A DNA stretch of 64,000 bases from an uncultured Chloroflexia bacterium (GCA_963731865.1 CAVSXG010000002.1:1898692-1962691), one strand, 5' to 3'. Shown: positions 15,534 through 41,178, counted from the first letter of the stretch. The notes: generated by a model from the sequence alone, not told the origin. Numbers and translations: made by a program.

Positions 15534-15761
15534 GCGGATCCGCGCCGAAAGCCGCACTGCGATGGCGCTAGCGGGACGGGCTGGCCAGGTCGTACACTCG
15601 GGTCGGCGTTTCCCACGCCCGACTTCCAGACCGGATCCCCACGCGACCCGGCGATGCGGAGGTAAAGGGGATCCGGATCCTCGGGACGACCGGTCTGATC
15701 ATCCGATCGGCTGGCGCTGTGTAGCGTGGGAGCGCGCGCCGGCCGTGACGGAGATCGACCG

Positions 15762-17101: not shown

Positions 17102-17138
17102 GAGGTCGTCGATCCCCTCCCGCTCGGCGTGTGGCTCG

Positions 17139-18104: not shown

Positions 18105-18763
18105 TTCGATGGCCCGGACGTTGGCTGGATCAGCAACCCTCGCAGCGCTCCGAGTGGATCGGGGATCTCGCCACCGTGCCCGAAGAGCACCCGATCGAAC
18201 TCGAGGCCTGCGATCCGTCGAAGGCTCTCTTCGGCTACACCCGGGTCAGCCGTAAACGGGGCGGGCCCTCGAGACAGGGAGCTCCCCACGGAGCCGATGA
18301 TGTCGCCCGCAAACAGGATCGATCCCTCGTCGAGTACAAAGCTGCAGTGACCGGGCGTGTGACCGGGCGTGTGGAGAACGCGGAGTTCCCGAACTGATCC
18401 GCCGTCCACGAGGCCTTGTAGCTCCCCGTCGAACGGGATTGCGGCCCGATCATCGGCACCAGCCCAGACCCTGGCGTGACTCGCACTCGCAACAACCTCG
18501 GCTAGCCCGCCCACGTGATCGGGGTGGCGGTGGGTCAGCACGACATCACTGATGTCGTCCCATCTGGCGCCAACTCGCGCGAGCCCGGCACCAATGGCGC
18601 CGTGGCTCCCGACGGTCCCGACATCGATCAGGACAACTCCGCTGGCGTGGGTGACCAGGAAGCATCGGACGTCAAAGTCGAGCGGTGCTGGCCCCGCGAC
18701 GCCAGCAGGAAGGTGCACGTCAATCACGATTGGTTCGACGTCGTCGTCATGGGCTGCCAGCAT
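18101..18763 (-). CDS. MBL-fold metallo-hydrolase.
   Basis: LTHRHPDHVGG (HxHxDH) and HTPGHTPGH motifs. 4-nt overlap with the downstream gene. Confidence 0.85.
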   Translation of the reverse strand: MLAAHDDDVEPIVIDVHLPAGVAGPAPLDFDVRCFLVTHASGVVLIDVGTVGSHGAIGAGLARVGARWDDISDVVLTHRHPDHVGGLAEVVASASHARVWAGADDRAAIPFDGELQGLVDGGSVRELRVLHTPGHTPGHCSFVLDEGSILFAGDIIGSVGSSLSRGPAPFTADPGVAEESLRRIAGLEFDRVLFGHGGEIPDPLGALRGLLIQPTSGPSN

Positions 18764-18806
18764 ATCGCCAGCTGATCGTCAATCGCCCTAGGTGCAGCCG
18801 GACGTC

Positions 18807-18990
18807 CTAGGCGATTTCGCGGCGGACCTTGAGCACCAGCCCCTCGGGGGCGTGGGCCCGCCGTTCGACAGTACCGACGCGCATCCCGGGCTCGTAGACG
18901 GCGCTCCGGCCCTTGCCCGCGGCCTTCGCGACGTACATCGCCGCGTCGGCATTCGTCAGCAGCTCGTCCACCGACCGGTTCGGTCGCCTC
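18807..18990 (-). pseudogene. 3'-terminal remnant of a GGDEF (diguanylate cyclase) domain gene.
   Basis: The minus-strand frame reads ...VDELLTNADAAMYVAKAAGKGRSAVYEPGMRVGTVERRAHAPEGLVLKVRREIA* (stop 18809-18807). ADxAMYxAKxxGKxR is the C-terminal GGDEF-domain signature. No intact upstream domain or start is present. Confidence 0.45.
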
Positions 18991-19081
18991 GTGGTATTCG
19001 GGCGGACTCAGAATGGCGGCGATCGCCGGCGTCGCCAATAACCCCTTCGTACCAATCGAGGTCGGGCCGGCGGGTCAGCGC

Positions 19082-19441: not shown

Positions 19442-22239
19442 TCACCAGGCTGCGAGCATCCAGATCCCTGGATCGGGATCGGCTGGGTTGCCACCGACCT
19501 CTGCGAAGGCCTCGACCGCTCGGCGCTGGTGCGGCCGCGCCGCTTCATCGAGCCCCGCCGAGTGGAGCAGGTCCGCGATGTGATTCTCGACGGCGGCTTC
19601 GAGATGGCGGTCCCCCACGCGTTGGCACGCCAACACGGCATTTTCCCCGTGCGAGAGCATCGCTTCGATCTGTCCGAGGGCGGATTCCGACATCGCCAAT
19701 CCAATCTCGGCAGCGATCCCCGCGGTTGGATCCGGATCATCCAGTGCTGCGACGCGTGCGAGCCGGAGGGCGGTGCGAGCGGCGACTGGGTCATTCCGAT
19801 CGAGTGCAGTCAAGCCGAGCATCCGATTGGCCGAACCAGCCGTGGCGGGATCCGCCCCCTCCGTCGCCAGGGCCAAGGCGCTCGATGCGGCCTCCTGGGC
19901 GGACTCGCTGTCGCCGACCCGGCGCTTGACGATCGATCGAGTCACCAGCATCTGGGCCTGCAACCGCGCATCGTCGACAACGGCAAATCCAGCGTCGAGG
20001 TGACGATCCGCGGCGACAAGGTCGCCGCGCCGCACGTGCACTCGGGCCAGGGCAAGTTCAAGCCCCGCCTGTCGACCCGGAACGGCAAACGCCGCCGCAG
20101 TCTCCAGCGAAGCGATCGCACCGGCGTAGTCGCCGACGCGTGTCTTCAGGCCGCCGATTGCCTCGTGGAGCCCGGCAACGTCTTGGTGGCCGAGACCCGC
20201 CGCGGCTTCATACAGGTCGATCGCTTCTGCGTTGGCATAGACGGCGGCTGCACGATTGGCCGCATCCCGATACGCCTCGGCGGCCTCGGCGTCTCGCCCG
20301 GCATCGCGCTCGTGCTGGGCGATCTGAACGAACCGACCAAGGTCATCCCGTCCTGATCCCGCAAGGTCAAGACGAAAGGCCTCCGCGATCCGACGATGCA
20401 GGAGGCGACGCCGCGCCACGCTCAAGGACTCCTCGGACAGGTCGCGGAGCGCGGCGTGGGCGAAGTCGTACCGCGGCTCCCGGCGACCCGGTGTCGACAG
20501 CTCTCGAATCAGGCCCCGCCGCAGGAGCTCATCGAGAGCCGCGACGGTCTCATCGTCTGATCGTCCGCTGGCGTGCCGGACGGTCGGTAGGTCGAACGAA
20601 CGCCCGATGAGCGCAGCCGCGGCCAGGACCTGCCGTGCTGCGCCATCCACGGAACCGAGTCGCTGGCGCACAACCGCTCGGACACCGTTTGGCATTTCGC
20701 CCGGAACAGCTCCTCCGGCAAGCGCCTCGACGACGTAGAGCGGCAAACCCTCGGAGGCACGCATCAATTCGTCGATCAGGCCTGGCGCCGGCCGCTCATC
20801 GCCGGTCGCGGCTGCGGCAAGCTCGGCGACGGCGGCGCGGTCGAACCGTTCGAGCGTCAGGGTCGAGGTCGCCGGCAGACCCTCGATCATCTCCGAGAAC
20901 CCGAGGTGGTCGGCGTCGAGGTCCTCGCGCCGCCACGTCAGGATCACGAGCACCGGTCGACCGGCAAGGCGGCGGAGCAGGTACGACAGGGCCTCGAGCG
21001 AGGCAGCATCCGCCCATTGGGCGTCATCGAGCCAGAGCGTCCCGGGCTGCGAGCCGGCCAGCAGCGCGGTCAGAGAGTCCGCGATGGCAGCGACCAGGCG
21101 GGCGTGCGCGGTCGGGCTCTCGCTCGGCGACGCGCGTCGTCCCGGGCCTTCGAACTCGGGCAGCAGCTGGCCGATCTCAGTCAACAGGAGGGGTGTCAGA
21201 AGCCGCCGACGCTCAGGATCGGCCAGGCCGGCACGCAGGAGTTCGACGACGACGCCGTATGCGATTGCGCGTTCCGCCTCATACGCCTGGGCGGCGATGA
21301 CGGTGCCGCCGGCGCCTGCGTGTCAAGTGCGACGGCCTCGGCGAGGCGGGTCTTTCCGATCCCCGCTTCTCCGGCGAGGACCACGACGCGACCATCCCTG
21401 GCTGCGCTCGCTCGTGCGCTCGCGATGAGATCCACTTCCGCGCGGCGCCCGACCATCGGCAGGCGCGCCGGGCTCTCGCGCCGCGGGAACCAAAGGTGGT
21501 GGCGGCGCGGGCGGCGCGGCGTCGCGGATGGCCTCGTATCGAGCCGTGGTCTCCGCGAGCGGCGCTACGCCGAGCTCGCGATCGAGCGTGGCGACGCAAT
21601 TGCGGTATTGGCGGAGGGCGCCCGCACGGTCGCCGGTGGCCGCGAGCACCTCCATCAGGCGCACATGGGCGCCTTCATCAAGCGGATCGAGGTCAACCCG
21701 CCGGGCTGCCGCCTCCCGTGCTCCGACGAGATCTCCAGCGGCCTCCGCAGCGAGCGCTCAGCTGATCCAGCACCGACGCGACCGCACGCTCAACCGCCAT
21801 CGCCTTTGCCCGCTCGCCAGTCGTCGAAGTCCGGGCTGTCACGGAGGCCGAACCCTGCGAGGAACGGGCCTCGGGCAAGCGCGGCCGCGGCGGCGAGATC
21901 GGGGAGGTGCCTCGCATGCACCGCGTTCTCGAGCTGGTCCAGGTCGACACGAACCATCGCCGGATCGAGTCCGACGTTCGCTCGGTCGACGATCAGGGCC
22001 TCGTTGCCAACGGCCGAGCGAAGCGTCGACAACGTGCGCCGGAGCGCACCTCGAGCGGACATGTCATCCGCCTCGGGCCAGAGCAATGCGGCCAACTCTG
22101 TCCGGGCGTACGCCCGTCGCTCCGTGGCAAGGAGCAGCAGGATGGCAAGCGCCTTTCGCGTGTCGACCTGGATCGGGGCGCCATGGACGAGGACCACCGG
22201 CGGACCGAGCAGGCTGATGTCGAGTGTTGGCGCGACCAC
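19442..22239 (-). pseudogene. SARP/AfsR-type regulator (winged-helix DNA-binding domain + BTAD + P-loop NTPase + TPR). It is broken into at least 5 frames as sequenced.
   Basis: N-terminus (21790-22239): ...DTRKALAILLLLATERRAYARTELAALLWPE...RGALRRTLSTLRSAV. BTAD: ...RLMEVLAATGDRAGALRQYRNCVATLDRELGVAPLAETTARYEAI. P-loop: VVLAGEAGIGKTRLAE. The 580-aa C-terminal ORF (19442-21184) has LWLDDAQWADAASLEAL plus TPR-like helices. Frame changes occur near 21800, 21755, 21450, 21300 and 21190. Confidence 0.8.
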
Positions 22240-22322
22240 GGTGTAACGGTACGCCCTGCGGTATGACGTTCCGTAACGATTCGAGGACGGTCGTCCCGCA
22301 TTCTCGACATATGGAGGTCACG

Positions 22323-23540
22323 ATGCCAACGCTCCGCTGGTTCGTCGTGCTCCCGTGGGCGCTGGCGATCGGATTGTTTGCGTGCCTTCTCGCCGCTGCC
22401 GTTGTCGCCGGGCAAACGCCTGATTTCGGAGGCGGGGAGGCCATCGAGCTCGTGGCCTTCTTCGGCATCATCGGGTTGTGGGGCGTGGCGAACGCGACGA
22501 TGGGCGCGCTCATCGTCCTGCGACGCCCGGGCAATCCGATTGGACGACTCCTGCTCGTGGGCGGTCCACTGGTCATCAGCGTTTTCCTGGGTTTCGCGCT
22601 GAGCGGGCTCCGAACGCTGATCGGCGGGTCCGAGGATCTGCTTGGCGGCCTGGCGGGTTGGTGGGCCTCGATCGCGTTCTTCCCCGCGCTCCTCATCGCG
22701 TGGCCGCTCATCGCGATCCTGTTTCCTGACGGCCGCCTGCCCTCGCCTCGATGGCGGCTGCCCGTGATCTCGATCGTCGTCGGAGAAGGCATCGTCTCCG
22801 GGGTCAGCGCCCTCAGGCAAGGTCCAGTTTCGCCAGGTCTGCCCGACAACCCCTTCGGCGTCCTCAGCCTTTCGGATGCCGTTAGCTCGGTGGTTGGCGT
22901 CGGCGGGACCGTGCTGTTCCTCGCGTCCCTCGTCGTTGCGTTCGCCGCGATCGCGGTTCGATGGCGCCAGGGGGATGTGCTGACGCGAGCCCAGCTCAAA
23001 TGGTTGCTCGGGGCGATCGCACTCGGGGTCGTCCTCTTTCCGCTCGGCTTTGGCGGAGACGTGTTCAACGCTCTCGACCTGTTGGGGGTGGGCAGCGCGA
23101 GCCTCATACCGATCGCGATCGCCATCGCGGTGCTGCGATACCGACTCTTCGAGATCGATCGGATCATCAGCCGGACCCTGACGTACGGCGTGCTGACCGT
23201 CGTGCTCGTCGGCACCTACCTGGTTGGCTTCGCGCTCGTGCAGGCATTCCTCGCGCCGTTCACGACCGGCGGCGGGCCAGTCGCTGTCGCCGCCTCGACA
23301 CTGGTCGTATTCGCCCTGTTCCAGCCCCTCCGTCGGTGGTTACGCGTGTTGATGGATCGGCGCTTCAACCGATCCCGCTTTGACGCTCAGCGAACCGTCG
23401 AGGGCTTTGCGGCGAATCTTCGAGACGAGTTCGATGCCGACCGCGTCGGCGACGAATTGGGCGCGATTGTTGAGCGCACGCTGGCTCCGACCTCCATCGA
23501 TGTCTGGCTCCGACCGTCCGTACGGATCGCCGGTCGATGA
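22323..23540 (+). CDS. Paralog 1 of 7: polytopic membrane protein with a conserved cytoplasmic C-terminal module ('kinase-less sensor-like').
   Basis: GGAGG RBS and ATG at 22323; 405 aa. Motifs: GALIVLRRPGNPIGRL, FPDGRLPSPRW, DNPFG, RAQLKWL, IAVLRYRLFEIDRIISRTLTYG, FQPLRRWLRVLMDRRFNRSRFDAQRT, VWLR. Confidence 0.85.
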   Translation: MPTLRWFVVLPWALAIGLFACLLAAAVVAGQTPDFGGGEAIELVAFFGIIGLWGVANATMGALIVLRRPGNPIGRLLLVGGPLVISVFLGFALSGLRTLIGGSEDLLGGLAGWWASIAFFPALLIAWPLIAILFPDGRLPSPRWRLPVISIVVGEGIVSGVSALRQGPVSPGLPDNPFGVLSLSDAVSSVVGVGGTVLFLASLVVAFAAIAVRWRQGDVLTRAQLKWLLGAIALGVVLFPLGFGGDVFNALDLLGVGSASLIPIAIAIAVLRYRLFEIDRIISRTLTYGVLTVVLVGTYLVGFALVQAFLAPFTTGGGPVAVAASTLVVFALFQPLRRWLRVLMDRRFNRSRFDAQRTVEGFAANLRDEFDADRVGDELGAIVERTLAPTSIDVWLRPSVRIAGR

Positions 23541-24718
23541 AGCGCGCGCTCGGCCTTGGCGTACGGCTTGCGATCGTTGGCCTCGTTATCGGCGCGATCA
23601 CTCTCTCGGCAACCAGCCCGCTTGGACCAGTGGGACTCGTCGCCTTGCCATATCTGGGCGTGGGCGCGCTTTTGGTCGCCCGCCGACCGGAGACATCTAT
23701 TGGCTGGATTCTCGTCGGCGTGGGCGCTTGCTACACGCTGTTGTCGATGCCAGTTACGGCTGATGCCCGGCAGTTCGCCGAGGGGACAGTCGATACGCCG
23801 GTCCTCCTTTTCGCGATCGTGCATGCGGGTCTCGGAACGACCTCGTTCTTCCTGTTCGCGGTTCTGATGATCGTGTTCCCGTCTGGCCGATTGCCTGCGG
23901 GACGGTGGGGTCGACTCGCTCGGGCAGCGTTGGGAACGGGTCTCATCTTCGCCGCGTCGGCCTACGTGATGCCCGAGATAAGCGTTGGCTATCCGGTGAG
24001 CGCCTGGGTTCCCAACCCGATTGCCCTGCTCCCAGAGGTTGCCATCTGGCAGGTGCTTACGCCGAGCACCGCGATCATTCCGGTCATGATCCTCATGGCG
24101 GCCGGCGCGATTTCCCTGTTCGTCCGAGCCAGACACGCGGCCGGCGTTGAGCGCCAACAGCTCCGTTGGATTGCAGCGTCGTTTGTGCTCGTCATCTCGG
24201 CCGTCCTGAGCGGCTTCGTCATCGGGATCATCCTTGTGCCGAGCGCGGGAGAAAGCGGCCTTGCGTGGATCCCGGTGATCTTCGCCTTCCCGCTGCCGCC
24301 CATAGCGATCGGGATCGCGGTGCTTCGCTATCGCCTGTACGACATCGACCGGATCATCAGCCGGACGATCGCGTACGCCTCTGTAAGCGGGATGCTCCTA
24401 GTCGTCTACGCCGGCCTGATCCTTGTGCTACAGGGTCCGCTGGGCACGATCACCGGTGGCGAGACAGTTGCGGTGGCCGCGTCAACGCTGGTCGCGGCGG
24501 CACTCTTCCAACCCATGCGCCGTCGAACCCAGGCCGCGGTGGACCATCGCTTCAACCGGGCTCGGTATGACGCGGAGCGGACGATCGACGCACTTGCGGC
24601 GGTCCTTCGCGATGAGATGGATTTACCCGTCGTCCGGGGGGCTGTCATCGACGCCGTCGAGCGCACCGTCGAGCCGACGGCAGCCAGCCTGTGGCTCCGT
24701 GCGGAGCAGGCGCGATGA
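23537..24718 (+). CDS. Paralog 2 of 7, same family.
   Basis: ATGA overlap with paralog 1; 393 aa. Motifs: RQQLRWI, IAVLRYRLYDIDRIISRTIAYA, FQPMRRRTQAAVDHRFNRARYDAERT, LWLR. Confidence 0.85.
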   Translation: MKRALGLGVRLAIVGLVIGAITLSATSPLGPVGLVALPYLGVGALLVARRPETSIGWILVGVGACYTLLSMPVTADARQFAEGTVDTPVLLFAIVHAGLGTTSFFLFAVLMIVFPSGRLPAGRWGRLARAALGTGLIFAASAYVMPEISVGYPVSAWVPNPIALLPEVAIWQVLTPSTAIIPVMILMAAGAISLFVRARHAAGVERQQLRWIAASFVLVISAVLSGFVIGIILVPSAGESGLAWIPVIFAFPLPPIAIGIAVLRYRLYDIDRIISRTIAYASVSGMLLVVYAGLILVLQGPLGTITGGETVAVAASTLVAAALFQPMRRRTQAAVDHRFNRARYDAERTIDALAAVLRDEMDLPVVRGAVIDAVERTVEPTAASLWLRAEQAR

Positions 24719-25935
24719 TGCGGCGCCTGGCCCGGCCATTCGCGATCTCGGCGGTCGCCGTTGCGGTCATTGGCGCAATCGGCGGGCTAACCATCCGGGC
24801 CATCGATCCCGTGCCGGTCATCCCCGACACGCTTGGGTTCACGGATGCTGCGCAAGTGGCCTTCGCGTTTCTGGGCGTCACTTTTGCCGCCGTTGGAGCG
24901 TTGCTCGTGGTGCGCCGGCCCGAGAACGCGGTTGGCTGGCTGATGATGTTGATCGGCTGTTCGAACGCGCTCGCGGGGCTGACAGCAGCCGTCACGTTCT
25001 CCGCGGTAGCCGATGGGCCATCGGGCGCGGCTGCCGCCGGGGTTGCTGGCTGGTTGACCGGCCTCTTCACGATGACCGGCACGCTCGTGTTCGGGCTTGG
25101 CTTCATCTTTCCAACGGGTCACGGGCACACACCTGCCTGGGATCGATTCATCCGGGTCGGCGCGGTCGCTTTGCTCATCGTGCTAGTCGTGTTCTTCCTC
25201 ATCAGACCCGGTCCCCTCCAGGTATTCGCGACAATCGAGAACCCATTCGGGATCGGGCCGGACATGCGACCGATCTTTGGACCGCAGATCTCGGCGGTTC
25301 TGGCGGCCTCGGGTCTCGTTATCCTCCCGTTCCTCGCGCTCTCGATCGTGACGCGCTACCGGATGTCGGTTCGAGCGGGTCGCCAGCAGCTGAAGTGGTT
25401 CATCCTCGCGCTCGCCGTGGCGCTCGCGGGTGTCGCGGTGGCCCTGGTCGGCACGCTCGCGAGTGGCGGTCCGCGGGAGGCCGGCCTCGTGGTGTTCGGG
25501 TTCGCCGGGGCCCTCATCCCGGTCGCGATCGGCATCGCGATCCTTCGCCACAACCTGTATGACATCGATCGGATCATCAGCCGCACGATCAGTTATGCGG
25601 CTCTCACCGCCGTGCTTGCCGCTGTGTTCGGATTGGTGACGCTATCGCTCGGCGTCGTACTCGGCACGCTTGGGCAGGGCCAGGGCATCGCCGTGGCTGG
25701 GTCGACGCTCCTGGTCGCCGCACTGTTCGGTCCGCTTCGACGGCGCGCCCAGTCGGTCGTTGATCGGCGGTTCGACCGATCCCACTACGACGCTTCGCGG
25801 ATCGTCCAGGCACTGACCACGCGATTGCGCGACGACGTCGATCTCGAGCGCATCGAAGGCGACGTGCTCAGCGTCGTGCAGCGCGCGTTCCGCCCCACGA
25901 TTGTGGGCGTTTGGCTGCGGAGACCATTGCGATGA
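24715..25935 (+). CDS. Paralog 3 of 7, same family.
   Basis: Start refined to the ATG at 24715 (ATGA overlap); 406 aa. Motifs: ENPFGIGPD, RQQLKWF, IAILRHNLYDIDRIISRTISYA, VDRRFDRSHYDASR, VWLR. Confidence 0.85.
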   Translation: MMRRLARPFAISAVAVAVIGAIGGLTIRAIDPVPVIPDTLGFTDAAQVAFAFLGVTFAAVGALLVVRRPENAVGWLMMLIGCSNALAGLTAAVTFSAVADGPSGAAAAGVAGWLTGLFTMTGTLVFGLGFIFPTGHGHTPAWDRFIRVGAVALLIVLVVFFLIRPGPLQVFATIENPFGIGPDMRPIFGPQISAVLAASGLVILPFLALSIVTRYRMSVRAGRQQLKWFILALAVALAGVAVALVGTLASGGPREAGLVVFGFAGALIPVAIGIAILRHNLYDIDRIISRTISYAALTAVLAAVFGLVTLSLGVVLGTLGQGQGIAVAGSTLLVAALFGPLRRRAQSVVDRRFDRSHYDASRIVQALTTRLRDDVDLERIEGDVLSVVQRAFRPTIVGVWLRRPLR

Positions 25936-27143
25936 CCGCCGCTCGCGCCTTCGCGGCGGCGGGCCTTGGTGTGGCGATCGTCGGGGCGGTCGGCACCGTC
26001 CTCGTCCGATACGGGTCACCGACCCCGTTGATCTCGTCGATGTTCGGGTTTGGTGGCGCTGCGATGTTCGGCTACCTGATTGGGGGCCTGGCCTGGTCGT
26101 CGATGGGGGCCCTGCTCGTGATTCGTCGGCGCGGGAACGCCGTGGGTTGGCTGATGGTGCTCGTAGGCGTGGGGTTCGCCCTGTCGCAGCTCTCCATTTC
26201 GCTGGCCTCCATGTTCGCCGCCGACGGCACCGCTGAAGGCCAGCGCCTCGCCCAGGTCGCCGCCTGGGCAACGGTCCTGCTGCAACTTGTCGGAGTTTTC
26301 CAGATCGGGATTGGGTTCCTGTTTCCTGGCGGGCGGGCCCAGAGCCGCGGATGGGCACGGTTCATTCGCATCGTCTGGGCGTTCGCGATCGTGTTCACCG
26401 TGGTCAGCCTGACCCAGCCGGGTCCCCTGCAACTGGTTCCCGCCCTTCAAAACCCATTTGGTTTTGGGCCCGACTTTCGTGGAGATCGGGCGATCGCGCC
26501 GATTTTCATCGTCCTGGGGCTGGTCATTCTCGTGGGCCTCGGAGCCTCAATGGCCCAGCGGTATCGGTCGGCAGGCCTCGTCGAGCGCCTCCAGTTGAAA
26601 TGGTTCGTCACGGCGCTGGGCCTGACATCGGTCGGGCTCGCCATCACGGTCTCGGAGGTGATCTTTCCGGCTCGGTTTGCCGCGGGGACCGGCCTCACGG
26701 TCTTCGTCTATGCGGGAGCGGTGGTCCCGGTCGCGATCGCCATCGCGATCCTGCGCCACCACCTCTTCGATATCGAACGGATCATCAGCCGCACGATCGG
26801 CTATGCGGTAGTCACCGCGGTGCTGGCGGTCGTGTTCGGGCTGGCAGTCCTGTCGTTTGGCGTCGTCCTCGGCTCCCTCGGGGAGGGCGAGACGATCGCT
26901 GTGGCTGGTTCGACCCTGCTGGTCGCGGCACTGTTCGGTCCGCTTAGGCGACGGGCTCAGGCGCTCGTCGACCGCCGCTTCGACCGATCGAGCTTTGACG
27001 CATCCCTGACCGTCCAGGCGATGACGGATCGGTTACGCGACGACGTGGACATCGACCGGGTGGAGGCCGATGTGCTTGGCGTGGTGGATCGGACGTTCCA
27101 TCCGACACGGGCTGGCGTATGGCTTCGGGGGCCGTCGCGATGA
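25932..27143 (+). CDS. Paralog 4 of 7, same family.
   Basis: Start refined to the ATG at 25932 (ATGA overlap); 403 aa. Motifs: QNPFGFGPDF, RLQLKWF, IAILRHHLFDIERIISRTIGYA, VDRRFDRSSFDASL, VWLR. Confidence 0.85.
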   Translation: MTAARAFAAAGLGVAIVGAVGTVLVRYGSPTPLISSMFGFGGAAMFGYLIGGLAWSSMGALLVIRRRGNAVGWLMVLVGVGFALSQLSISLASMFAADGTAEGQRLAQVAAWATVLLQLVGVFQIGIGFLFPGGRAQSRGWARFIRIVWAFAIVFTVVSLTQPGPLQLVPALQNPFGFGPDFRGDRAIAPIFIVLGLVILVGLGASMAQRYRSAGLVERLQLKWFVTALGLTSVGLAITVSEVIFPARFAAGTGLTVFVYAGAVVPVAIAIAILRHHLFDIERIISRTIGYAVVTAVLAVVFGLAVLSFGVVLGSLGEGETIAVAGSTLLVAALFGPLRRRAQALVDRRFDRSSFDASLTVQAMTDRLRDDVDIDRVEADVLGVVDRTFHPTRAGVWLRGPSR

Positions 27144-28351
27144 GCGGCCGGCGCGCGTTCGCCCTGGGGGGCCTCGCCCTCGCGCTTGTCGGGGCCGTGG
27201 GCGCGATCCTGGTTCGCCTCGCGACGCAGGCGCCATTCCTACCGATCACCTTTGGGTTCGGTCCGGTCGCGATGGTCGCGTTCATCATCATGGGGCTCAG
27301 CTGGGCGTCGATCGGGGCCTTCCTGGTCATCCGACGTCCCCAGAACGTGGTCGGGTTGTTCATGGTGTTGGCGGGGGCAGGGTACGCGCTGTCAATGCTT
27401 GGCCTCGCTCTGACGTTCGCATTCGCTGCCGATGGGACCGCGGATCGGCGCCAACTGGCCGAGCTCGCGGGCTGGGCGACTGTCCTGTGCACGAACATCG
27501 GTGCCGCCGTGTTTTTCATCGGCTTCATCTTCCCGACGGGTCGGGCGCAATCGCCGCGCTGGGCAACGCTCTTCCGGCTCTCGTGGCCATTGATGCTCGT
27601 GATCGCGGCAGGGATTACCTTCCAGCCCGGTCCGTTGCACCTCTTCCCCACCCTGCAGAACCCGTTTGGTTTGGGCCCCGACTTCCGCGCCGGGCAGCCG
27701 GTCTCCCCGCTCGTCTGGATCCTGTCGGTCTTCCTTGGGCCGCTGCTGACCTTTTCGGTGGCGACCCGATACCGGATGGCCGGCCGCACCGAGCGGCAAC
27801 AGCTCAAATGGTTCGGTCTGGCGCTGATCATTGCGGTCTTCGGCGTCGGGTTCTCCGCGTACGGCGCGGCCTGGACGACAGGGACGCCGGCCGAAGTCGG
27901 CCTGGCGGTCTACGGGTTCGCCGCAGCGGGCGTTCCGGTCGCCATCGCGATCGCGATCCTGCGCCACCACCTCTACGACATCGATCGGATCTTCAGTCGA
28001 ACGATCGCCTACGGGCTCGTGAGCGCCATCCTGGCGACCGTCTTCGGCGGAATGATCGTGGTCTCGTCGGCGGCGCTCGCGTCGTTCGCCCAGGGCGAGA
28101 CCATCGCGGTCGCGGCGTCCACGCTCGCCGCCTTTGCCGTCTTCCAACCCGTGCTTCGCCGGGTCCGCCGCCAGGTTGACCGGCGCTTCAACCGGGCTCG
28201 GTATGACGCCGAGCAGACGGTCGCAACGTTCTCCGATCGGCTGCGCCACGAGATCGATCTCGCCCACCTGAGCAGCGATCTTGACGCGACCATCCGCGAA
28301 GCGATCGCGCCGCAGTCGGTCCGAATCTGGCTCCGGGCAAGCCGACGATGA
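27140..28351 (+). CDS. Paralog 5 of 7, same family.
   Basis: Start refined to the ATG at 27140 (ATGA overlap); 403 aa. Motifs: QNPFGLGPDF, RQQLKWF, IAILRHHLYDIDRIFSRTIAYG, VDRRFNRARYDAEQT, IWLR. Confidence 0.85.
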   Translation: MSGRRAFALGGLALALVGAVGAILVRLATQAPFLPITFGFGPVAMVAFIIMGLSWASIGAFLVIRRPQNVVGLFMVLAGAGYALSMLGLALTFAFAADGTADRRQLAELAGWATVLCTNIGAAVFFIGFIFPTGRAQSPRWATLFRLSWPLMLVIAAGITFQPGPLHLFPTLQNPFGLGPDFRAGQPVSPLVWILSVFLGPLLTFSVATRYRMAGRTERQQLKWFGLALIIAVFGVGFSAYGAAWTTGTPAEVGLAVYGFAAAGVPVAIAIAILRHHLYDIDRIFSRTIAYGLVSAILATVFGGMIVVSSAALASFAQGETIAVAASTLAAFAVFQPVLRRVRRQVDRRFNRARYDAEQTVATFSDRLRHEIDLAHLSSDLDATIREAIAPQSVRIWLRASRR

Positions 28352-29619
28352 CGCGAACGGCCCCGCTGCGTCGTCGGACGAAACGATCCGTCGCGATGAT
28401 CGTGGCGTCGATCACGGTGACGGCGGCAATCTCGCTGGCAATGGACGCCGTGCTCATCCGTTTTGCGGCCGACGTGCCCTTCGCGATCCTCGCCGGCGCC
28501 GTCCTGTTCACCGGCACCGGGATCATGCAATCGGTGGTTGGTGGCATCATCGAATGGGGCAGGCCCGGGCACGGGATCGGCCGCCTCATGTTGCTTGGGG
28601 GCCCGCTCTACGCGATCGCGGCCTCGGGCTGGACAACGGCCGACAGGCTCCGACCGTTCATTGAACCTGCCCTCTATCAATGGTTCAGCTGGGGCGTGGC
28701 CGTCCTGATCTCGTATCCAGCCGTGGCAATTCTCGCGTGCTGGATTCCACTCTTGTTCCCGACCGGGAAGCTGCCGAGTCCGAGGTGGCGGGTTCCTGCC
28801 GCCTTCCTCCTGACGCTGACGGGTGTCGGCGTGGTAGCGGCGGCCTTCCGCCCGGGACCGCCACTGGGAGCACCGGATGCCGAACTGGTAAACCCTATCG
28901 GGATCGAGGGTTGGCCCGAATTCCTTCAGCCGTTGGTCGATGCGGTCCCGTTCGCGGTGCTGGCGACGCTCGTCCTGGCCGTGGTGGCCTTGGTCACCCG
29001 TTACCGTCGAGGCGATCGGATCGAGCGGCTCCAGATCCGATGGTTCGTCGCCGCCGTCCTCATCGTGCCGATCTCGCTCGTCGGAGTCCTCATCGAGCTT
29101 GCCCTCCGCGCCGCGGGGATGTTCGGCGGCGCGACTGGCCCTGGATCCGGCCCAAACGCGCTCGTCTCCGTCCTCGTGTCGTACGCGGGCATCTTCGCGA
29201 TGCCGATTGCGATCGGGATCGCGGTGACGCGTCATCGGCTTTACGAGATCGACCGGCTCATCAGCCGCACGATCGGGTGGGCGTTGGTGTCGGGCGTGCT
29301 CGTCCTGGTGTTCGCCGGAACCGTATTGGGACTCCAGGCGCTCCTCGACCGCGTGACCCAGGGTGAGACCCTGGCTGTGGCCGCGTCCACCCTCGTCGCG
29401 TTTGCCCTGTTCCAGCCCCTTCGCCGGCGCGTCCAGACGGCGGTCGATCGCCGCTTCGACCGCGCGCGATACGACGGCGAACGGACCGCGGTCGCATTCG
29501 CGGAGCGCCTGCGGGAACAGGTCGACCTCGCGGGGCTGGAGGCCGACCTTGCCCTGACCGTCGAGGCCGCGCTGCGCCCGAGCTCGACTGGTCTGTGGAT
29601 CCGCGGAGCTGCCCGATGA
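28348..29619 (+). CDS. Paralog 6 of 7, same family.
   Basis: ATGA overlap; 423 aa. Motifs: VNPIGIEG, RLQIRWF, IAVTRHRLYEIDRLISRTIGWA, VDRRFDRARYDGERT, LWIR. Confidence 0.85.
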   Translation: MTRTAPLRRRTKRSVAMIVASITVTAAISLAMDAVLIRFAADVPFAILAGAVLFTGTGIMQSVVGGIIEWGRPGHGIGRLMLLGGPLYAIAASGWTTADRLRPFIEPALYQWFSWGVAVLISYPAVAILACWIPLLFPTGKLPSPRWRVPAAFLLTLTGVGVVAAAFRPGPPLGAPDAELVNPIGIEGWPEFLQPLVDAVPFAVLATLVLAVVALVTRYRRGDRIERLQIRWFVAAVLIVPISLVGVLIELALRAAGMFGGATGPGSGPNALVSVLVSYAGIFAMPIAIGIAVTRHRLYEIDRLISRTIGWALVSGVLVLVFAGTVLGLQALLDRVTQGETLAVAASTLVAFALFQPLRRRVQTAVDRRFDRARYDGERTAVAFAERLREQVDLAGLEADLALTVEAALRPSSTGLWIRGAAR

Positions 29620-30851
29620 ATGCCGCGCGGTTGGTGGCCGCTGTGGTGGTGGTCCTGACGGTGGCCATGAACGCTGGGACGGCTTGGGTCTTGTTCGGCA
29701 CGGAGTTCCTCAGCCGCTACGCCCAACCGGGCCTGACCGAGTCCTACGTCGTGTTCGTGTACGCCGCGGTCGCCGGGTTCGCGGCGGTCTCGACAAGCTA
29801 CGTCCTGGTGGGCTTGTTGCTCTCCGGACGGCGGGGCGCAGGCCGGATCGCTACCGTATTGCTGGCCGGCGGTGCCCTGCTCGCGGCGACGCCGTTCGGC
29901 TACAGCGTCGGTGGCGAGTTCGCCGCACGGGCTCCAGCAAACGCGCTCGCGAATGCCCTGTTCCTCATCGGTCCCGTTGCCTTCGGGACCGCGTTCTCAC
30001 TGATCCTCCCCGGCCTCGCCCTCGTGTTCCCGACAGGCGCGCTTCCGTCGCGTCGCTGGCGTTTGCCCGTAGGGCTTGTTGCCGCCGCGCTTGGCGTCGG
30101 GACGGCCATCGTACTGGCGAAGCCGGGACCGATCACGGGAGCGGCTGGTACCCACAACCCGTTCGGGATCGATGGCCTGCCGGTGGGCCTCGTCGATGCG
30201 GCTCCGGCATTGCTCTCGGGCGCGATCGTCGGGTTCACGATCCTCGGCGTGGCAGCCGTCCTCACTCGCTATCGGCATGGGGATGTGACCCTGCGGCAAC
30301 AACTCAAGTGGTTTGTCGCAGCGGCATTGCTCGTCGCTGTACCGCTGCCCCTTTCGGTCATCCCAGGTGAGAGCGGGCCATTCTGGGGGGCGCTCGCCTG
30401 CGTGGGGCTCCTCCTCGTGCCGGTCTCTGTCGGCATCGCGGTGACGCGGCACCGGCTCTACGAGATCGATCGGTTCGTCAGCCGCGGCCTGTCGTGGGCC
30501 GTCCTCAGTGGCCTGTTGCTCGCCGTGTACGGCGGCGCAGTCATCCTGCTGCAGGGCGTGCTCAATGGCGTAACGCAAGGCGAGACGCTGGCCGTCGCCG
30601 GTTCGACCCTCCTCGCCGCGGCCTTGTTCCAGCCGCTCCGTCGGCGCATCCAGGCCGGGGTCGACCACCGCTTCAACCGGGCCCGATACGACGCCGAGCG
30701 AACCGCGAACGACTTCGCGGAGCGCCTTCGGGACGAAGTCGATCTCGTCTCGCTCAGCGAAGGTATCGGCACTGTCGTGGACACCGCACTTCGCCCGACC
30801 TCGGTCGGCGTCTGGATCCGAAAACCGGTGCCCACCACCCCAGCCAACTAA
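29616..30851 (+). CDS. Paralog 7 of 7, same family.
   Basis: Start refined to the ATG at 29616 (ATGA overlap); 411 aa. Motifs: HNPFGIDG, RQQLKWF, IAVTRHRLYEIDRFVSRGLSWA, VDHRFNRARYDAERT, VWIR. Confidence 0.85.
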   Translation: MNAARLVAAVVVVLTVAMNAGTAWVLFGTEFLSRYAQPGLTESYVVFVYAAVAGFAAVSTSYVLVGLLLSGRRGAGRIATVLLAGGALLAATPFGYSVGGEFAARAPANALANALFLIGPVAFGTAFSLILPGLALVFPTGALPSRRWRLPVGLVAAALGVGTAIVLAKPGPITGAAGTHNPFGIDGLPVGLVDAAPALLSGAIVGFTILGVAAVLTRYRHGDVTLRQQLKWFVAAALLVAVPLPLSVIPGESGPFWGALACVGLLLVPVSVGIAVTRHRLYEIDRFVSRGLSWAVLSGLLLAVYGGAVILLQGVLNGVTQGETLAVAGSTLLAAALFQPLRRRIQAGVDHRFNRARYDAERTANDFAERLRDEVDLVSLSEGIGTVVDTALRPTSVGVWIRKPVPTTPAN

Positions 30852-30925
30852 CACCGTAACGATTTCCGGACACCCCACGACCATCGTGGGGTCCTGACAA
30901 CGAAGTGACCAGGAGGACGATGACA

Positions 30926-31324
30926 ATGACCAGGCAGGGGTTCATGGGCCTGGCCGCCGGTGTATCTGTCGTCACGGGCTTGGCCACTCTGCTCGCGCCG
31001 GCTCAGATTGCCTCGGTTTTCGGCGTGGCGCTCAACGACGCAGGCATCGCGCAGACACGCCTCCTCGGTGCGGCATATATCGGCTACGCGGTAATCGTCT
31101 GGTTCGGCAAGGACGTTCAGGACCACGCCGCCCGCCGTGCGATCGCGCTGGGGAACGTCGTGAGCTACGCGCTCTCGGCGGTCGTGACCGTGGTCGCACT
31201 GGGCCTCGGACTCGCCGGAATGCAGTCATGGTCACTCGTGGTTCTGGAAGTTGTCTTCACGGCGGCATGGGGGTACCTCGCCTTCATCGATCGGGCCGAA
31301 GGCGTCGTGGTGAACACCAGATGA
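30926..31324 (+). CDS. Small 4-TM membrane protein, family unknown.
   Basis: AGGAGG lies 9 nt before the ATG at 30926. MTRQGFMGLAAGVSVVTGLATLLAP...; 132 aa. Its stop forms an ATGA overlap with an ATG at 31321. Confidence 0.6.
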   Translation: MTRQGFMGLAAGVSVVTGLATLLAPAQIASVFGVALNDAGIAQTRLLGAAYIGYAVIVWFGKDVQDHAARRAIALGNVVSYALSAVVTVVALGLGLAGMQSWSLVVLEVVFTAAWGYLAFIDRAEGVVVNTR

Positions 31325-31360
31325 CCGCATTGACCCGTCCGATCCGCCGGCTGTTCGGTC

Positions 31361-32947
31361 GTGGCGACCCTGCAGCGGAGACTCTCGAGCCCTCCGACGG
31401 ATCCCGAGGTGGCGGTCCCTGCCGCCGCGGTCGAACCCACCAGCACGATCGCAATCGACATCGCGGAGGACGATGCGCTCCTCCCGTACCTCCAGTCTGC
31501 AGCTGGTCCGGTGGATCTCGCCCGACTCGAGCTCGACTCATCGGCCGTCACGGCCCTGCGCGAGGCGGGCGTCGCGCTCGTCGTCCCGCTCGTCTCCCAG
31601 GGCGAGCTGATCGGCACGCTGAACCTCGGCCCGCGGCTTTCGGAGCAGGAGTACTCCACCGACGATCGCCGCCTCCTGACGACCCTCGCCGCCCAGGCCG
31701 CACCGGCCATCCGCGTCGCGCAGCTGGTCCGTGAGCAGGCCCATGAAGCCGCCGAGCGCGAGCGCCTCAACCAGGAGATGCGCGTCGCGACCCTCATCCA
31801 GCAGCAGTTCCTGCCTCGAGAGCTGCCGAACCTGCCGCAATGGCAGATCGCCGCCTATTACGGCCCGGCTCGAGCGGTCGGTGGCGACTTCTACGACTTC
31901 ATCGAGATGTCCGACGGTCGCATCGGGATCGCCGTCGGCGACGTCACGGACAAGGGCGTACCCGCGGCCCTAGTCATGGCCCGAACCCATTCAATCCTCC
32001 GGGCTGAAGCCAGCCGGAGCGATTCACCCGGCGAGATCCTCGCCCGTGCGAACGCGCTCCTCGAGCCAGAGATGCCGGCGCGGATGTTCGTGACCTGCCT
32101 CTTCGCGATCCTGGAGCCCAGCACGGGCCGGATCGTGATGGCCAATGCCGGGCACAACCTGCCCTACATCCGCACGGACGATGGGGTCGTCGAGCTGCGG
32201 GCCACTGGGATGCCGCTGGGCCTCATGCCCGGCATCCGATACGAAGAGGTCGAGGGCGTGATTGCCCCGGGCAGCAACGTCCTGCTCTACTCGGACGGAC
32301 TCGTGGAGGCGCACGACCCGAACCAGGAGATGTACGGCTTCCCGCGCCTGCGCGAGGCGATGACGATCGACGACGCCGGCAGCGAGCTCCTCGACCGCTT
32401 GCTCGAAACCCTTGACGTGTTCACCGGTCCCGATTGGGAGCAGGAAGACGACATCACCCTCGTGACGCTGCGGCGTGCATCCGGGGTGTCGGGCCACGAC
32501 GGTGAGGTCGCGAACGTCAGGTCGGCGTTCTCGATCCCGGGCGAGGAGGGGAACGAACGACTCGCCATGGACCGGGTAGCCGCAACCGTCGCCGACCTCG
32601 GACTGTCCCCTGCCCGCCTCGAGCGTCTGAAGACCGCCGTCAGCGAGGCAACCATGAACGCCATCGAGTACGGCAGCCAGGGTCGCGCGGACGTCCCGGT
32701 CGAAATCGAGGTCGAGGCAACGCTCGAGAACGTCATCGTCCGCGTCACCGATCGCGCCCTGTCGGGCGTGGTGCCGGACGACGCCGAGACGCCCGATATC
32801 GAGCTCAAGCTGGCCGGCGAACAGAAGCCGCGCGGCTGGGGGCTCTTCCTCATCAAGAGCATGGTGGATTCGATGGACGTGACCAGCGACGGGTCGACCC
32901 AGACGGTGACCCTGACGATGGCGCGCGAGGAGCGAACCGATGGATGA
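31361..32947 (+). CDS. Fusion protein: GAF-like N-terminal domain, PP2C/SpoIIE-type phosphatase, and a RsbW/SpoIIAB-like HATPase (anti-sigma-type Ser kinase) domain.
   Basis: GAF-like region: VPLVSQGELIGTLNLGPRLSEQEYSTDDRRLLTTLAAQAAPAIRVA. PP2C region: ...YYGPARAVGGDFYDFIEMSDGRIGIAVGDVTDKGVPAALVMA...LLYSDGLVEAHD. HATPase region: ...LKTAVSEATMNAIEYGSQG...RGWGLFLIKSMVDSMDV. The true start may be the ATG at 31321 (MTALTRPIRRLFGRGDPAAETLE...), joined by a frame slip near 31395. Confidence 0.85.
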   Translation: MATLQRRLSSPPTDPEVAVPAAAVEPTSTIAIDIAEDDALLPYLQSAAGPVDLARLELDSSAVTALREAGVALVVPLVSQGELIGTLNLGPRLSEQEYSTDDRRLLTTLAAQAAPAIRVAQLVREQAHEAAERERLNQEMRVATLIQQQFLPRELPNLPQWQIAAYYGPARAVGGDFYDFIEMSDGRIGIAVGDVTDKGVPAALVMARTHSILRAEASRSDSPGEILARANALLEPEMPARMFVTCLFAILEPSTGRIVMANAGHNLPYIRTDDGVVELRATGMPLGLMPGIRYEEVEGVIAPGSNVLLYSDGLVEAHDPNQEMYGFPRLREAMTIDDAGSELLDRLLETLDVFTGPDWEQEDDITLVTLRRASGVSGHDGEVANVRSAFSIPGEEGNERLAMDRVAATVADLGLSPARLERLKTAVSEATMNAIEYGSQGRADVPVEIEVEATLENVIVRVTDRALSGVVPDDAETPDIELKLAGEQKPRGWGLFLIKSMVDSMDVTSDGSTQTVTLTMAREERTDG

Positions 32948-33272
32948 ACGACCTTTTGGCGCGGAGATCAGTGAGGTTCCAGAAGAGATCCGCGTGCGTC
33001 TGAGCGGCGACCTCAACGGCCGCGCCGACGAGATGCTCGCGGACACCTATCGCCGCGTGGTCGAGCTGGGTCCCCGGCGTGTCAGCCTCGACTTCGGGCG
33101 CGTCGGCTACATCAACAGCACCGGGATCGCGCTTGTCGTGCGGCTCCTGGCCGAGGCGCGCCGCGATGGACGTGCCGTCCGGGCGCTCGGCCTCACCGAG
33201 CACTACCGGGAGATCTTCCGGATCACCCGCCTGTCTGACTTCATGGAAATCGTCGAAGGAGACGCCGCATGA
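32940..33272 (+). CDS. STAS-domain anti-sigma-factor antagonist (RsbV/SpoIIAA-like), copy 1.
   Basis: 110 aa. ...VSLDFGRVGYINSTGIALVVRLL...LTEHYREIFRITRLSDFMEI. A Ser/Thr sits at the phospho-acceptor position (INSTG). 8-nt overlap with the upstream gene. Confidence 0.85.
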   Translation: MDERPFGAEISEVPEEIRVRLSGDLNGRADEMLADTYRRVVELGPRRVSLDFGRVGYINSTGIALVVRLLAEARRDGRAVRALGLTEHYREIFRITRLSDFMEIVEGDAA

Positions 33273-33616
33273 ACGCGACCGTCATCGATCTCGATCGGTC
33301 AGGATCCGCGGCGATCCTGCGCATCGCCGGCGACGTCACGTCGGCAAGCGAACCTGACCTGATGGCCGGCTACGCCCAGGCCGCCGAGGGTGGCGCCGGT
33401 GTCGTCGTCCTCGATTTTGCCGGACTCGAGTACATGAACAGTGGTGGCATCGGGCTGCTCGTCACCCTGCTCGTCCGGGCCCAGCGCACCGGCACGCGCC
33501 TGCTGGCCACGGGCCTGTCCGAGCATTACCGCCAGATCCTCTCCATCACCCGGCTCGACGAGGCGATCGAGATCCACGAAGACGAAACCGCAGCCCTTGC
33601 CGCTGCAAGCGCCTGA
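33269..33616 (+). CDS. STAS-domain anti-sigma-factor antagonist, copy 2.
   Basis: 115 aa. ...VVLDFAGLEYMNSGGIGLLVTLL...LSEHYRQILSITRLDEAIEI. ATGA overlap with copy 1. Confidence 0.85.
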   Translation: MNATVIDLDRSGSAAILRIAGDVTSASEPDLMAGYAQAAEGGAGVVVLDFAGLEYMNSGGIGLLVTLLVRAQRTGTRLLATGLSEHYRQILSITRLDEAIEIHEDETAALAAASA

Positions 33617-33643: not shown

Positions 33644-34393
33644 ATGACGAACCAGGTAGCCGAGAAGCGCCCCGCCGACACAGGCCGAGACTCCGGAAAT
33701 TGGGCGCCGTCGGTCGACCGGCTGTCGGCGGCCGGCGTGGAAGGTGCGAAGGTCGACTCGGTCACTGGCAAACGAGTGGCAGGCCCGCTGCAGGGGTTTG
33801 GTCAGCTTTGGCAGCGGACATACAACGTCCAACTTACAAATACCGCCGTCACGCCTCAGCAGCTCATCGCGGCATGGAAAGACGGGTTCTCCACGTTCTG
33901 GCCAAAGAACGCGACGTTCTACGCCCCCCTGGCCGGCATTGCGCCCGGTGAAGTTGCGCTCTTCGACGTGGCGCCGATGCCAGGGTCGCCGGTCAAGCTC
34001 TCAACGGGCGTCATGGTCCTGTATGCGGATGATGAGTCGTTCACATTCATGACCCCCGAAGGCCACACCCTGTCGGCGTGGATCACGTTCTCGGCCTACC
34101 GCGAGGGTGACGTCACCGTCGCCCAGGCGCAGGCGCTGGAGCGAGCGTCCGACCCGCTCGACGAGATGATCTACATCCTCACCAGCAAGCTCATGGATCG
34201 GTTCTGGGGCGAGACTCTCACGAACCTGGCCCGCCACGTTGGCGTCGCGGAACCGGCCATCGAGACGCGCGTCGTGTGCGTCGACAAACGCCGTCAATGG
34301 CGCTATGTGCGCAACCTGCGCAACAGCGCATCGATCCGCACGGTCCGTCGAACCCTCGGTGCGCCGGTCCGACTGCTCACTGGCCGCCGCTAG
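33644..34393 (+). CDS. Conserved-looking hypothetical protein (249 aa). The possibly DUF1990-like assignment is weak.
   Basis: Non-repetitive composition. It starts 27 nt after the STAS gene and is the last gene of the same-strand cluster. ...FTFMTPEGHTLSAWITFSAYREGD... vaguely recalls DUF1990. Confidence 0.55.
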   Translation: MTNQVAEKRPADTGRDSGNWAPSVDRLSAAGVEGAKVDSVTGKRVAGPLQGFGQLWQRTYNVQLTNTAVTPQQLIAAWKDGFSTFWPKNATFYAPLAGIAPGEVALFDVAPMPGSPVKLSTGVMVLYADDESFTFMTPEGHTLSAWITFSAYREGDVTVAQAQALERASDPLDEMIYILTSKLMDRFWGETLTNLARHVGVAEPAIETRVVCVDKRRQWRYVRNLRNSASIRTVRRTLGAPVRLLTGRR

Positions 34394-37822: not shown

Positions 37823-38403
37823 TCAGATCGACTTGAAGTGCTCGAACGGCTGGCGGCAGGCCGTGCAGTGGTAGATCGCCCGGCATTGGGTCGGGCCGAA
37901 CAGGTTTTCGAGGACCGTCCGCCGTGAGCCGCAGTGCGGGCAGGGCACGACCGCGGAGAGTTGCAGCAGGACCGGCTCGTCTGGCCGGGCGGCGCCGGGC
38001 GGCGCGAACCCCGCCTCGTGCAGCTTGCGGCGGCCCTCGCCGGTGATCCGATCCGACGTCCAGGGCACCCGGTACCCAAACTTGACGTCGACCGGCCGGC
38101 CGAAAGCGCCGCAGGCGATCTTCGACGGCGCGCGCGGATCAGGTCGAGCGCCGGGACAGCCGACAAACGTGGGCAGGAGCTCCACGCGGATCCCGGTCGC
38201 GTCGACCTCGACCCGTTCGACCATCCCGAGATCCATCACCGACACCATCGGGAGCTCCGGGTCGGGCACGTCCGCGAGCGCAGCGCGAACGGCGGCCGCG
38301 TCGAGCGCCGCGTCGACGACGGACTCGCCGGGCCGGCCAGACCGGGCGGCTGGATCCCCGCCCGGCTACGCGCGATCGAGGTGTGCACCGCGGCCTCGCT
38401 CAC
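37823..38403 (-). pseudogene. paaD: Phenylacetate-CoA oxygenase subunit PaaD (also named PaaJ). Several indels as sequenced.
   Basis: GTGA overlap with the paaC stop. ...VPDPELPMVSVMDLGMVERVEV...LPTFVGCP(ALDLIRA in the alternate frame)...VPWTSDRITGEGRRKLHEAGFAPP...CPHCGS...CTACRQPFEHFKSI. Confidence 0.7.
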
Positions 38404-39489: not shown

Positions 39490-39495
39490 CGCGGC

Positions 39496-41084: not shown

Positions 41085-41103
41085 GTCGAGGCATCCTCCC
41101 TAA

Positions 41104-41117: not shown

Positions 41118-41178
41118 GTTGGCAGGGTACGGTCCGACCGGAAACGCGTCAAGCGCGACCGGCACGATCGTTGTGGTT

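Follow-up and report, generated by a model that had tools for sequence, protein, structure and literature searches.

In Bacillus, the RsbR paralogs of the stressosome act upstream of a partner switch formed by the PP2C phosphatase RsbU, RsbW and RsbV, and SpoIIE consists of a 10-transmembrane (10-TM) N-terminal region, a regulatory region and then a PP2C domain. Few systems are known for how partner-switching phosphatases receive signals from the membrane or from the extracellular space. Two other described systems bear on the locus analysed here, namely, PrsK, a histidine kinase of the XrtA/PEP-CTERM system, the input domain of which is uncharacterised and the stimulus of which has been termed 'obscure' (PMC1569441), and the SARP regulators, the promoters of which follow a rule of 11-bp repeats with the 3' repeat located 8 bp from the −10 element (PMC10936776). 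In this study, we analysed a stretch of 64,000 nucleotides from an uncultured Chloroflexia bacterium (GCA_963731865.1, CAVSXG010000002.1:1898692-1962691), hereafter the window, in which seven tandem genes at positions 22323-30851 encode paralogous polytopic membrane proteins (here called F), upstream of a gene for a phosphatase/kinase protein (here called P). With a probability of about 0.5, we propose that F arrays are multiple kinase-less sensors feeding a co-encoded PP2C/RsbW-like partner switch. The observed basis comprises the anatomy and family of F, its homology signal, the synteny, a promoter motif in common and the pattern of selection; sensing, the contact between F and P and the direction of signal flow are the parts of this proposal that we infer.

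The seven F genes are as follows, where orthologs are those of L081, a relative at 86% DNA identity.

22323..23540, + strand: F copy 1 (405 amino acids), with GGAGG 7 nt 5' of the ATG
23537..24718, + strand: F copy 2 (393 amino acids), ATGA overlap with copy 1; ortholog 83% identical
24715..25935, + strand: F copy 3 (406 amino acids), ATGA overlap; ortholog 86% identical
25932..27143, + strand: F copy 4 (403 amino acids), ATGA overlap; the copy used for structure prediction
27140..28351, + strand: F copy 5 (403 amino acids), ATGA overlap; ortholog 88% identical
28348..29619, + strand: F copy 6 (423 amino acids), ATGA overlap; absent from L081
29616..30851, + strand: F copy 7 (411 amino acids), ATGA overlap; only a 31-amino-acid tail remnant kept in L081

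An earlier note on this DNA had described seven same-strand paralogous open reading frames (ORFs) with these coordinates and lengths, and all of them were found. The six ATGA overlaps that it reported were likewise recovered: every junction reads CGATGA, in which the TGA stop lies on the next ATG to give a 4-nt stop/start overlap, and PGAP selects similar overlapping starts in cultured relatives. End-to-end alignment of the seven copies gave 50 invariant columns, and the shared protein motifs claimed previously correspond to invariant or near-invariant columns. The recurring DNA core could also be reproduced, with exactly seven occurrences of ATCGAYCGGATCATCAGCCG at a spacing of 1190-1268 nt, against a chance expectation of 0.08. 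Pairwise identity among the paralogs was 36-53% over the full length, 43-74% over the last 125 amino acids and 31-49% over the N-terminal part (the first ~280 amino acids). The statement that neighbours share about half of their residues is thus slightly generous for the array as a whole, and holds for copies 3-5.

Tandem arrays are the norm for F. The family occupies at least 536 places in species-representative genomes, from which 78 loci, mostly of Chloroflexota and Actinomycetota, were kept for comparison; 51 loci hold two to eight tandem copies and 26 hold a single copy. The carriers among the kept loci belong to Limnocylindria and relatives in Chloroflexota, and to Rubrobacter, Thermoleophilia, Acidimicrobiia, Kribbella and Nocardioides in Actinomycetota. 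An NTGA overlap was observed at 138 of the 150 adjacent F-F junctions (93 ATGA, 42 GTGA and 3 TTGA). As a family-wide rule, these overlaps can be accounted for without the earlier suggestion that the unit was copied along with its junction.

We then consider what kind of protein F is. Pfam searches with the seven copies gave no match worth noting, with no GAF, HisKA or HATPase_c domain of a kinase core, and neither Pfam nor NCBIfam holds a model for the family or revealed a transporter or catalytic signature, in agreement with the description of F as a kinase-less polytopic protein free of transporter and catalytic motifs. The sole recurring NCBIfam match was to the N-terminal membrane half of the PrsK histidine kinase (TIGR02916), spanning profile positions 2-349 of 679. 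The best copy in the window scored 22.6 bits (E 3.4e-5), and 27 of the 76 family members matched at E<=0.01 (best E 1.8e-9); in addition, one relative has a weak precomputed HisKA_7TM match. The matches to the PrsK membrane domain are recurrent and collinear but weak. A likeness to the sensor part of histidine kinases, put forward earlier, has therefore been measured, and is weak. These results weakly suggest that the F family is a distant relative of the PrsK membrane 'specificity' domain, without the kinase.

An AlphaFold2 model of copy 4, built on a 76-sequence alignment, had a predicted local distance difference test (pLDDT) score of 76 and a predicted template modelling (pTM) score of 0.65. 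In this model, ten TM helices lead into a pair of short helices on the cytoplasmic side, and the chain closes with a conserved coil, the last residues of which are WLR. All five of the Arg-rich conserved motifs (RRPxN, FPTGRxPxxRW, RYRxxxxxRxQLKW, LRxRLYDIDRxxSRT and RRRxQxxVDRRFxR) map to loops predicted to be cytoplasmic, and NPFG is the only listed conserved motif in an outside loop. F is therefore predicted to have ten TM helices with both termini inside. In one relative (P0122), the first outside loop accommodates a PDZ domain, in agreement with this topology; the fusion of F with F in one chain, which needs an even number of TM helices, agrees with it as well. Such chains of ~920-960 amino acids, each with two complete F modules, occur in some lineages (P0122, P0123, P0125 and P0164). 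Together with the PDZ insertion, these fusions hint at F-F pairing and at extracytoplasmic sensing. Foldseek comparison of the copy-4 model with the Protein Data Bank (PDB) gave as best matches the helix bundles of G-protein-coupled receptors, which were weak (TM-score about 0.3).

F is divided into two parts, as judged from identity among the paralogs and among 69 copy-4 orthologs.

TM1-8: paralog identity 0.20-0.42; ortholog identity 0.57-0.77
NPFG outside loop: paralog identity 0.33; ortholog identity 0.81
TM9, TM10 and tail: paralog identity 0.46-0.64; ortholog identity 0.51-0.62

When all loci were compared, 191 of 206 copies had their closest N-domain in another genome, and 86 of 204 copies had their closest tail within their own array. 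By these comparisons, TM1-8 appear to be paralog-specific but conserved among orthologs, and TM9-10 with the tail appear to be common to all copies. This two-part pattern is what would be expected of diversified recognition parts on a common output part. Recent gene conversion within the window was tested as the cause of the similarity of the C-terminal modules and is not supported: synonymous differences amount to 0.42-0.64 in the C-terminal module and to about 0.6 in the N-domain, and with synonymous sites of the former nearly as diverged as those of the latter, recent conversion is not the cause here. In the arrays of Kribbella (L062) and Nocardioides (L033), the paralog tails are about 85-90% identical and the N-domains about 35-40%, with synonymous differences in the tails somewhat lowered (0.32-0.41 versus 0.5-0.6). 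Old gene conversion, or co-evolution with a common partner, could account for the tails of these two arrays.

The array lies in a gene cassette, the members of which in the window are listed below.

19442..22239, − strand: A', large SARP/AfsR-like regulator (winged helix-turn-helix-BTAD, AAA_16 nucleotide-binding oligomerization domain (NOD), TPR), divergent from the array
30905..31324, + strand: small membrane protein of 139 amino acids, weak DUF8292 match; its stop overlaps the ATG of P (ATGA)
31321..32947, + strand: P, with a partial GAF, a SpoIIE-type PP2C and an RsbW-like HATPase_c_2 domain, assigned by Pfam and a 33-ortholog alignment
32940..33272, + strand: STAS protein 1 (110 amino acids; Pfam STAS/STAS_2), INSTG serine motif
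33269..33616, + strand: STAS protein 2 (115 amino acids; Pfam), MNSGG serine motif; ATGA overlap with STAS protein 1
33644..34393, + strand: C, DUF1990-type protein of 249 amino acids, the last cassette member in the window

Based on clustering of neighbouring genes, the conserved cassette consists of a divergent SARP gene (~950 amino acids), a variable number of F genes, P (~550 amino acids), two STAS genes and a gene for a DUF1990 protein, and the window holds all of these core parts. P or STAS genes are present in the locus for 39 of 51 arrays versus 3 of 26 single copies, and a divergent SARP gene lies upstream of 25 of the 35 arrays with enough upstream flank versus 3 of 21 single copies. 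The cassette occurs in Chloroflexota and Actinomycetota, including Kribbella and Nocardioides; a survey of neighbourhoods thus bore out, across two phyla, the co-occurrence of arrays with SpoIIE/STAS genes that had been put forward earlier. The parts of a partner switch are present, namely, a PP2C with Asp motifs, an RsbW/SpoIIAB-like HATPase_c_2 domain and STAS proteins with a phosphorylatable serine.

In P, the SpoIIE domain (E 9.7e-50) is fused to the HATPase_c_2 domain (E 2.8e-19), and the phosphatase motifs GGDFYD, GDVTDKG, YSDG and EDDIT are readable, including the catalytic Asp motifs. The protein begins with a basic peptide, MTALTRPIRRLFGR in the window and MTxLTRPxRRLxGR as the consensus of 33 orthologs, followed by a variable Pro/Ala-rich linker and then a half-GAF. 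The basic peptide and flexible linker would fit a membrane-proximal tether. The true start of P is the ATG at 31321; a frameshift in the linker follows, and the long ORF restarts at the GTG at 31361. The half-GAF matches only the C-terminal part of GAF profiles and is extremely conserved across phyla, and in a search for it in other proteins it was found solely in P orthologs.

A' is split into three ORFs in the window assembly (22239-21790, 21664-21323 and 21184-19442). Pfam detected BTAD, AAA_16 and TPR_12 on the fragments, and BTAD, AAA_16 and TPR on an intact ortholog (L021), and tblastn with the intact 954-amino-acid ortholog of L079 covered A' at residues 5-954 in two frames. Homologs of C form a cluster in 36 loci, with DUF1990 detected on the L015 homolog. 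In 30 loci, a gene for a flavin adenine dinucleotide (FAD)-dependent oxidoreductase (amine-oxidase/CrtD-like, ~477 amino acids) lies 3' of the DUF1990 gene, as at 7195-8682 of L081. The window is without this oxidoreductase, and a convergent gene for a cyclic-nucleotide (cNMP)-binding protein is found instead from 34394 on. The small membrane protein is hydrophobic, with about four membrane segments predicted by eye; its homologs lie within or after the arrays of L079, L080 and L024, and not in most cassettes.

F and P are further connected by a promoter motif, which occurs twice in the window.

22243..22289, + strand: promoter/operator region of the array, with the motif CGTAACGATTCGAGGACG at 22272-22289 and an extra GTAACG at 22243
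30855..30872, + strand: second SARP-box-like motif, CGTAACGATTTCCGGACA, directly 3' of the copy-7 stop

The first motif contains the hexamers GTAACG and AGGACG at a distance of 11 nt and then, after 8 nt, a −10-like CATTCT, and the second ends 33 nt and starts 50 nt 5' of the start of the small membrane gene. Searching about 1.3 Mb of loci for CGTAACG-N6-G[AG]AC[AG] gave 88 occurrences (2 in the window and 86 in loci L002-L081), all on the strand of F: 41 before F genes, single copies included, 35 before P and 12 before other cassette genes. The general layout is GTAACG-N5-CGGACG, followed 8 nt on by a hexamer, the second and sixth positions of which are A and T, respectively. This arrangement agrees with the published SARP rule (PMC10936776), and makes the motif a candidate box as read from sequence. 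Since the motif stands before the array as well as before the P operon, the divergent SARP seems to govern both as a single regulon, from two or more promoters. A single long transcript is not the sole expectation, given the second promoter-like motif between copy 7 and the P operon. Before P, the distance from the start of the motif to the start codon is about 40 nt, and leaders there are thus likely to be very short.

Taken together, we propose the following scheme. The array would be the input layer of the conserved cassette, and the SARP/AfsR-like activator would drive two promoters with the same direct-repeat box, one for the array and one for the P operon. Through the 4-nt overlaps, the F copies would be made in fixed proportion, and may be present as hetero-oligomers. 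The TM1-8 part, including the NPFG outside loop, would be paralog-specific and do the sensing, and TM9-TM10 with the two-helix cytoplasmic tail would form a common output surface. Different F paralogs would pick up signals in or across the membrane and pass them, via the shared C-terminal module, to the membrane-proximal P, which would set the phosphorylation state of the STAS proteins and thereby the downstream output. More tentatively, F may constitute a new class of signal input, in which mixed membrane complexes of kinase-less 10-TM sensors jointly control a tethered P; we regard this stronger form as possible but doubtful.

Several observations weigh against the sensor proposal. The association of F with P is drawn from gene neighbourhood and a promoter motif in common, and there are single-copy F genes with no P gene nearby, so that F can work without an adjacent P. 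The conserved neighbour clusters include no sigma factor, and the conserved cassette contains no other output. The score of F against TIGR02916 is far under the curated cut-off (22.6 versus 300 bits), and no kinase-fused close relative of F was seen. The Foldseek search of PDB with the copy-4 model yielded nothing significant (best E 0.03), and a profile search of PDB sequences with F gave no match. Structure prediction for the natural F-F fusion P0164, from a 5-sequence alignment, gave a pLDDT of 52, a pTM of 0.41 and no usable dimer. Finally, a split GAF, in which the F tail would complete the partial GAF of P by supplying the missing N-terminal helix and strand, was tried and rejected: when the tails of four F proteins were joined to the P half-GAF, no Pfam GAF match became longer or stronger.

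Three other explanations were weighed, and each is less well supported than the sensor proposal. The one that survives best, which we nevertheless consider rather unlikely, reverses the relationship: F proteins would be the regulated output, as channels, transporters or membrane-remodelling proteins that are switched by the STAS proteins or by the RsbW-like domain of P and expressed under the control of the SARP. STAS domains do switch SLC26/SulP transporters, F is polytopic with ten predicted TM helices, and its conserved cytoplasmic tail could serve as a docking surface for a switch protein; the common promoter motif, which places F and P in one apparent regulon, and the lack of a sigma factor target in the cassette would also be accommodated. 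However, F matched no transporter or channel family in Pfam or NCBIfam, comparison of TM1-5 with TM6-10 by hhalign detected no internal repeat (probability 2%), and the invariant residues lie on cytoplasmic loops and not in the membrane core. The sole homology signal is to the sensor domain of a kinase, and seven diverged copies of an effector are harder to rationalise than seven sensors.

The age and turnover of the array bear on a second explanation. The relative L081 holds orthologs of copies 2-5 at 83-88% amino acid identity, against 35-52% among F paralogs in the same comparison, and the ratio of nonsynonymous to synonymous substitution rates (dN/dS) against L081 was 0.16-0.19 for F, 0.076 for P and about 0.07 for the STAS proteins. 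In agreement with the earlier view of an old, maintained array, these values indicate that the array is old and under purifying selection. L081 is without the equivalent of window positions 28357-31318, which hold copies 6 and 7 and the small membrane gene, and retains a 31-amino-acid remnant of the copy-7 tail (L081 4035-4157). A more distant relative, L079, has eight F copies, all joined by 4-nt overlaps. Among them, orthologs of copies 2, 4, 5, 6 and 7 keep their order and are 53-69% identical. Copies thus appear to be still gained and lost. In comparison with L082, a second assembly from a 97.3% identical strain, the segment 28461-30641 holds most of the mismatches and indels, and copies 3-5 are almost identical; copies 6-7 may be a hot spot of turnover, or the assembly may have collapsed from mixed strains.

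Such turnover would be in keeping with a conflict or immunity locus, in which F paralogs act as phage receptors or decoys, or in toxin immunity, guarded by a STAND-like nucleoside triphosphatase (NTPase) and with fast copy turnover. Copy number does vary between close relatives, as L081 illustrates with its loss of copies 6 and 7 and the small membrane gene, the differences from the 97% strain do fall mostly in copies 6-7, the N-domains are strongly diversified among paralogs, and the neighbouring regulator, with its NOD/AAA_16-TPR architecture, is STAND-like. The N-domains are, however, conserved among orthologs (0.6-0.8 identity; dN/dS 0.16-0.19) and not diversifying, and paralog order is partly kept down to 53-69% identity. 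PADLOC matched none of F, P, C, the STAS proteins and the small membrane protein, the cassette contains neither a toxin nor an effector gene, and tblastn of F against plasmids returned no match. We therefore judge a conflict locus to be improbable.

The extent of the family and the position of its ends concern the third explanation. A search with copy 4 yielded more than 3,800 clusters at 90% identity, and the top 120 matches were all ~400 amino acids long, free of Pfam domains and either unnamed or labelled 'hypothetical', as are the Kribbella and Nocardioides members in RefSeq ('hypothetical protein'). Literature searches yielded no description of either the F family or the cassette. A profile of the C-terminal module matched 26,172 proteins at E<=1e-3 and 6,027 at E<=1e-30 among 1.84 billion representatives of clusters at 50% identity, and the best matches were ~400 amino acids long, ending with the module. 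In 80 related loci, F copies stop 0-20 amino acids after WLR, and the top 150 representatives end there too. Among the ORFs of these 80 loci, searched with both the full-length and the C-terminal profiles, no F relative was fused to a kinase or to P; the long proteins among the top representatives were F-F fusions or frameshift artefacts, and not F-kinase or F-PP2C fusions. Since members end directly after WLR, the kinase-less form is the family norm and F proteins are not 3'-truncated histidine kinases, the outcome named earlier as one that would speak against stand-alone sensors. That F proteins are decayed or truncated histidine kinases without a function of their own, or helper subunits of kinases encoded elsewhere, is the least probable of the three explanations, as the weak PrsK homology, the weak HisKA_7TM match in one relative and the single copies outside the cassette are set against a kinase-less norm of 6,027 clusters at E<=1e-30 with top matches ending at the module, no kinase remnant after any copy in the 80 loci, purifying selection on F and no histidine kinase as a conserved neighbour.

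One contrast in the window could be mistaken for a biological signal. The array is intact, whereas the SARP gene is interrupted by at least one frameshift as well as by an in-frame stop (21184-21790 region) and the P gene has one frameshift (31321-31400). Aligned with the window, L082 shows 130 gap openings, and its gene calls are broken up both within the array and at the P gene. Since L082 breaks in the array as well as in P, and P is under strong purifying selection, the difference between intact array and broken regulators, noted earlier and true of this sequence, has no biological meaning; the frame disruptions are best read as probable noise of long-read assembly. At 1-19000 and 38000-48000 of the window, many short same-strand ORF fragments with a coding-like GC content at third codon positions were observed, which suggest further indel errors throughout the window.

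Gene order and promoter motif tie a large unannotated family to a partner switch and an AfsR-like activator in Chloroflexota and Actinomycetota, two phyla that dominate soils. If the proposed role is true, a new bacterial signalling input domain would be defined, the retention of this domain in coupled paralog arrays would be explained and thousands of 'hypothetical proteins' would gain a function. If mixed F complexes are formed, they would represent a membrane-embedded counterpart of the stressosome, with tens of thousands of unannotated clusters. The full cassette is present in cultured Kribbella and Nocardioides strains, and the idea is thus directly testable.

Finally, we compare the cassette with the known systems. 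The match to PrsK extends over the entire polytopic region, as far as the beginning of the cytoplasmic part. Unlike PrsK, F has no GAF, HisKA or HATPase_c domain, scores far below the cut-off, belongs to Chloroflexota and Actinomycetota, is arranged in tandem arrays and has PP2C, STAS and SARP proteins as conserved neighbours, where PrsK is paired with PrsR/sigma-54. The divergent regulator resembles the large AfsR-type SARPs with afs-box promoters, both in its BTAD, NOD (AAA_16) and TPR domains and in the 11-nt repeats located 8 nt from the −10 element (PMC10936776). It differs in that the candidate targets are signalling and membrane genes and not an antibiotic cluster, that the box (GTAACG/CGGACG) is not the same and that it also occurs in Chloroflexota. 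With SpoIIE, the cassette has in common a 10-TM part and a SpoIIE-family PP2C that acts on STAS, such that F and P would resemble a two-chain split version of that protein. In contrast to SpoIIE, the two are separate chains, many alternative F copies exist and P also carries an RsbW-like domain; the Pfam search detected no sequence similarity of F to the SpoIIE membrane part. Compared with RsbR, F proteins lack a STAS domain and are membrane-embedded through ten TM helices, the cassette has no equivalents of RsbS and RsbT and no sigma factor, and the kinase and phosphatase are fused in P. In common with RsbR, F comes as several paralogs, each joining a variable N-terminal part, putatively for sensing, to a conserved C-terminal one, and is encoded beside a PP2C phosphatase, an anti-sigma-type kinase and STAS proteins; many inputs would likewise converge on one switch. 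The RsbR paralogs upstream of the sigma-B partner switch thus probably provide the closest functional analogy for F.

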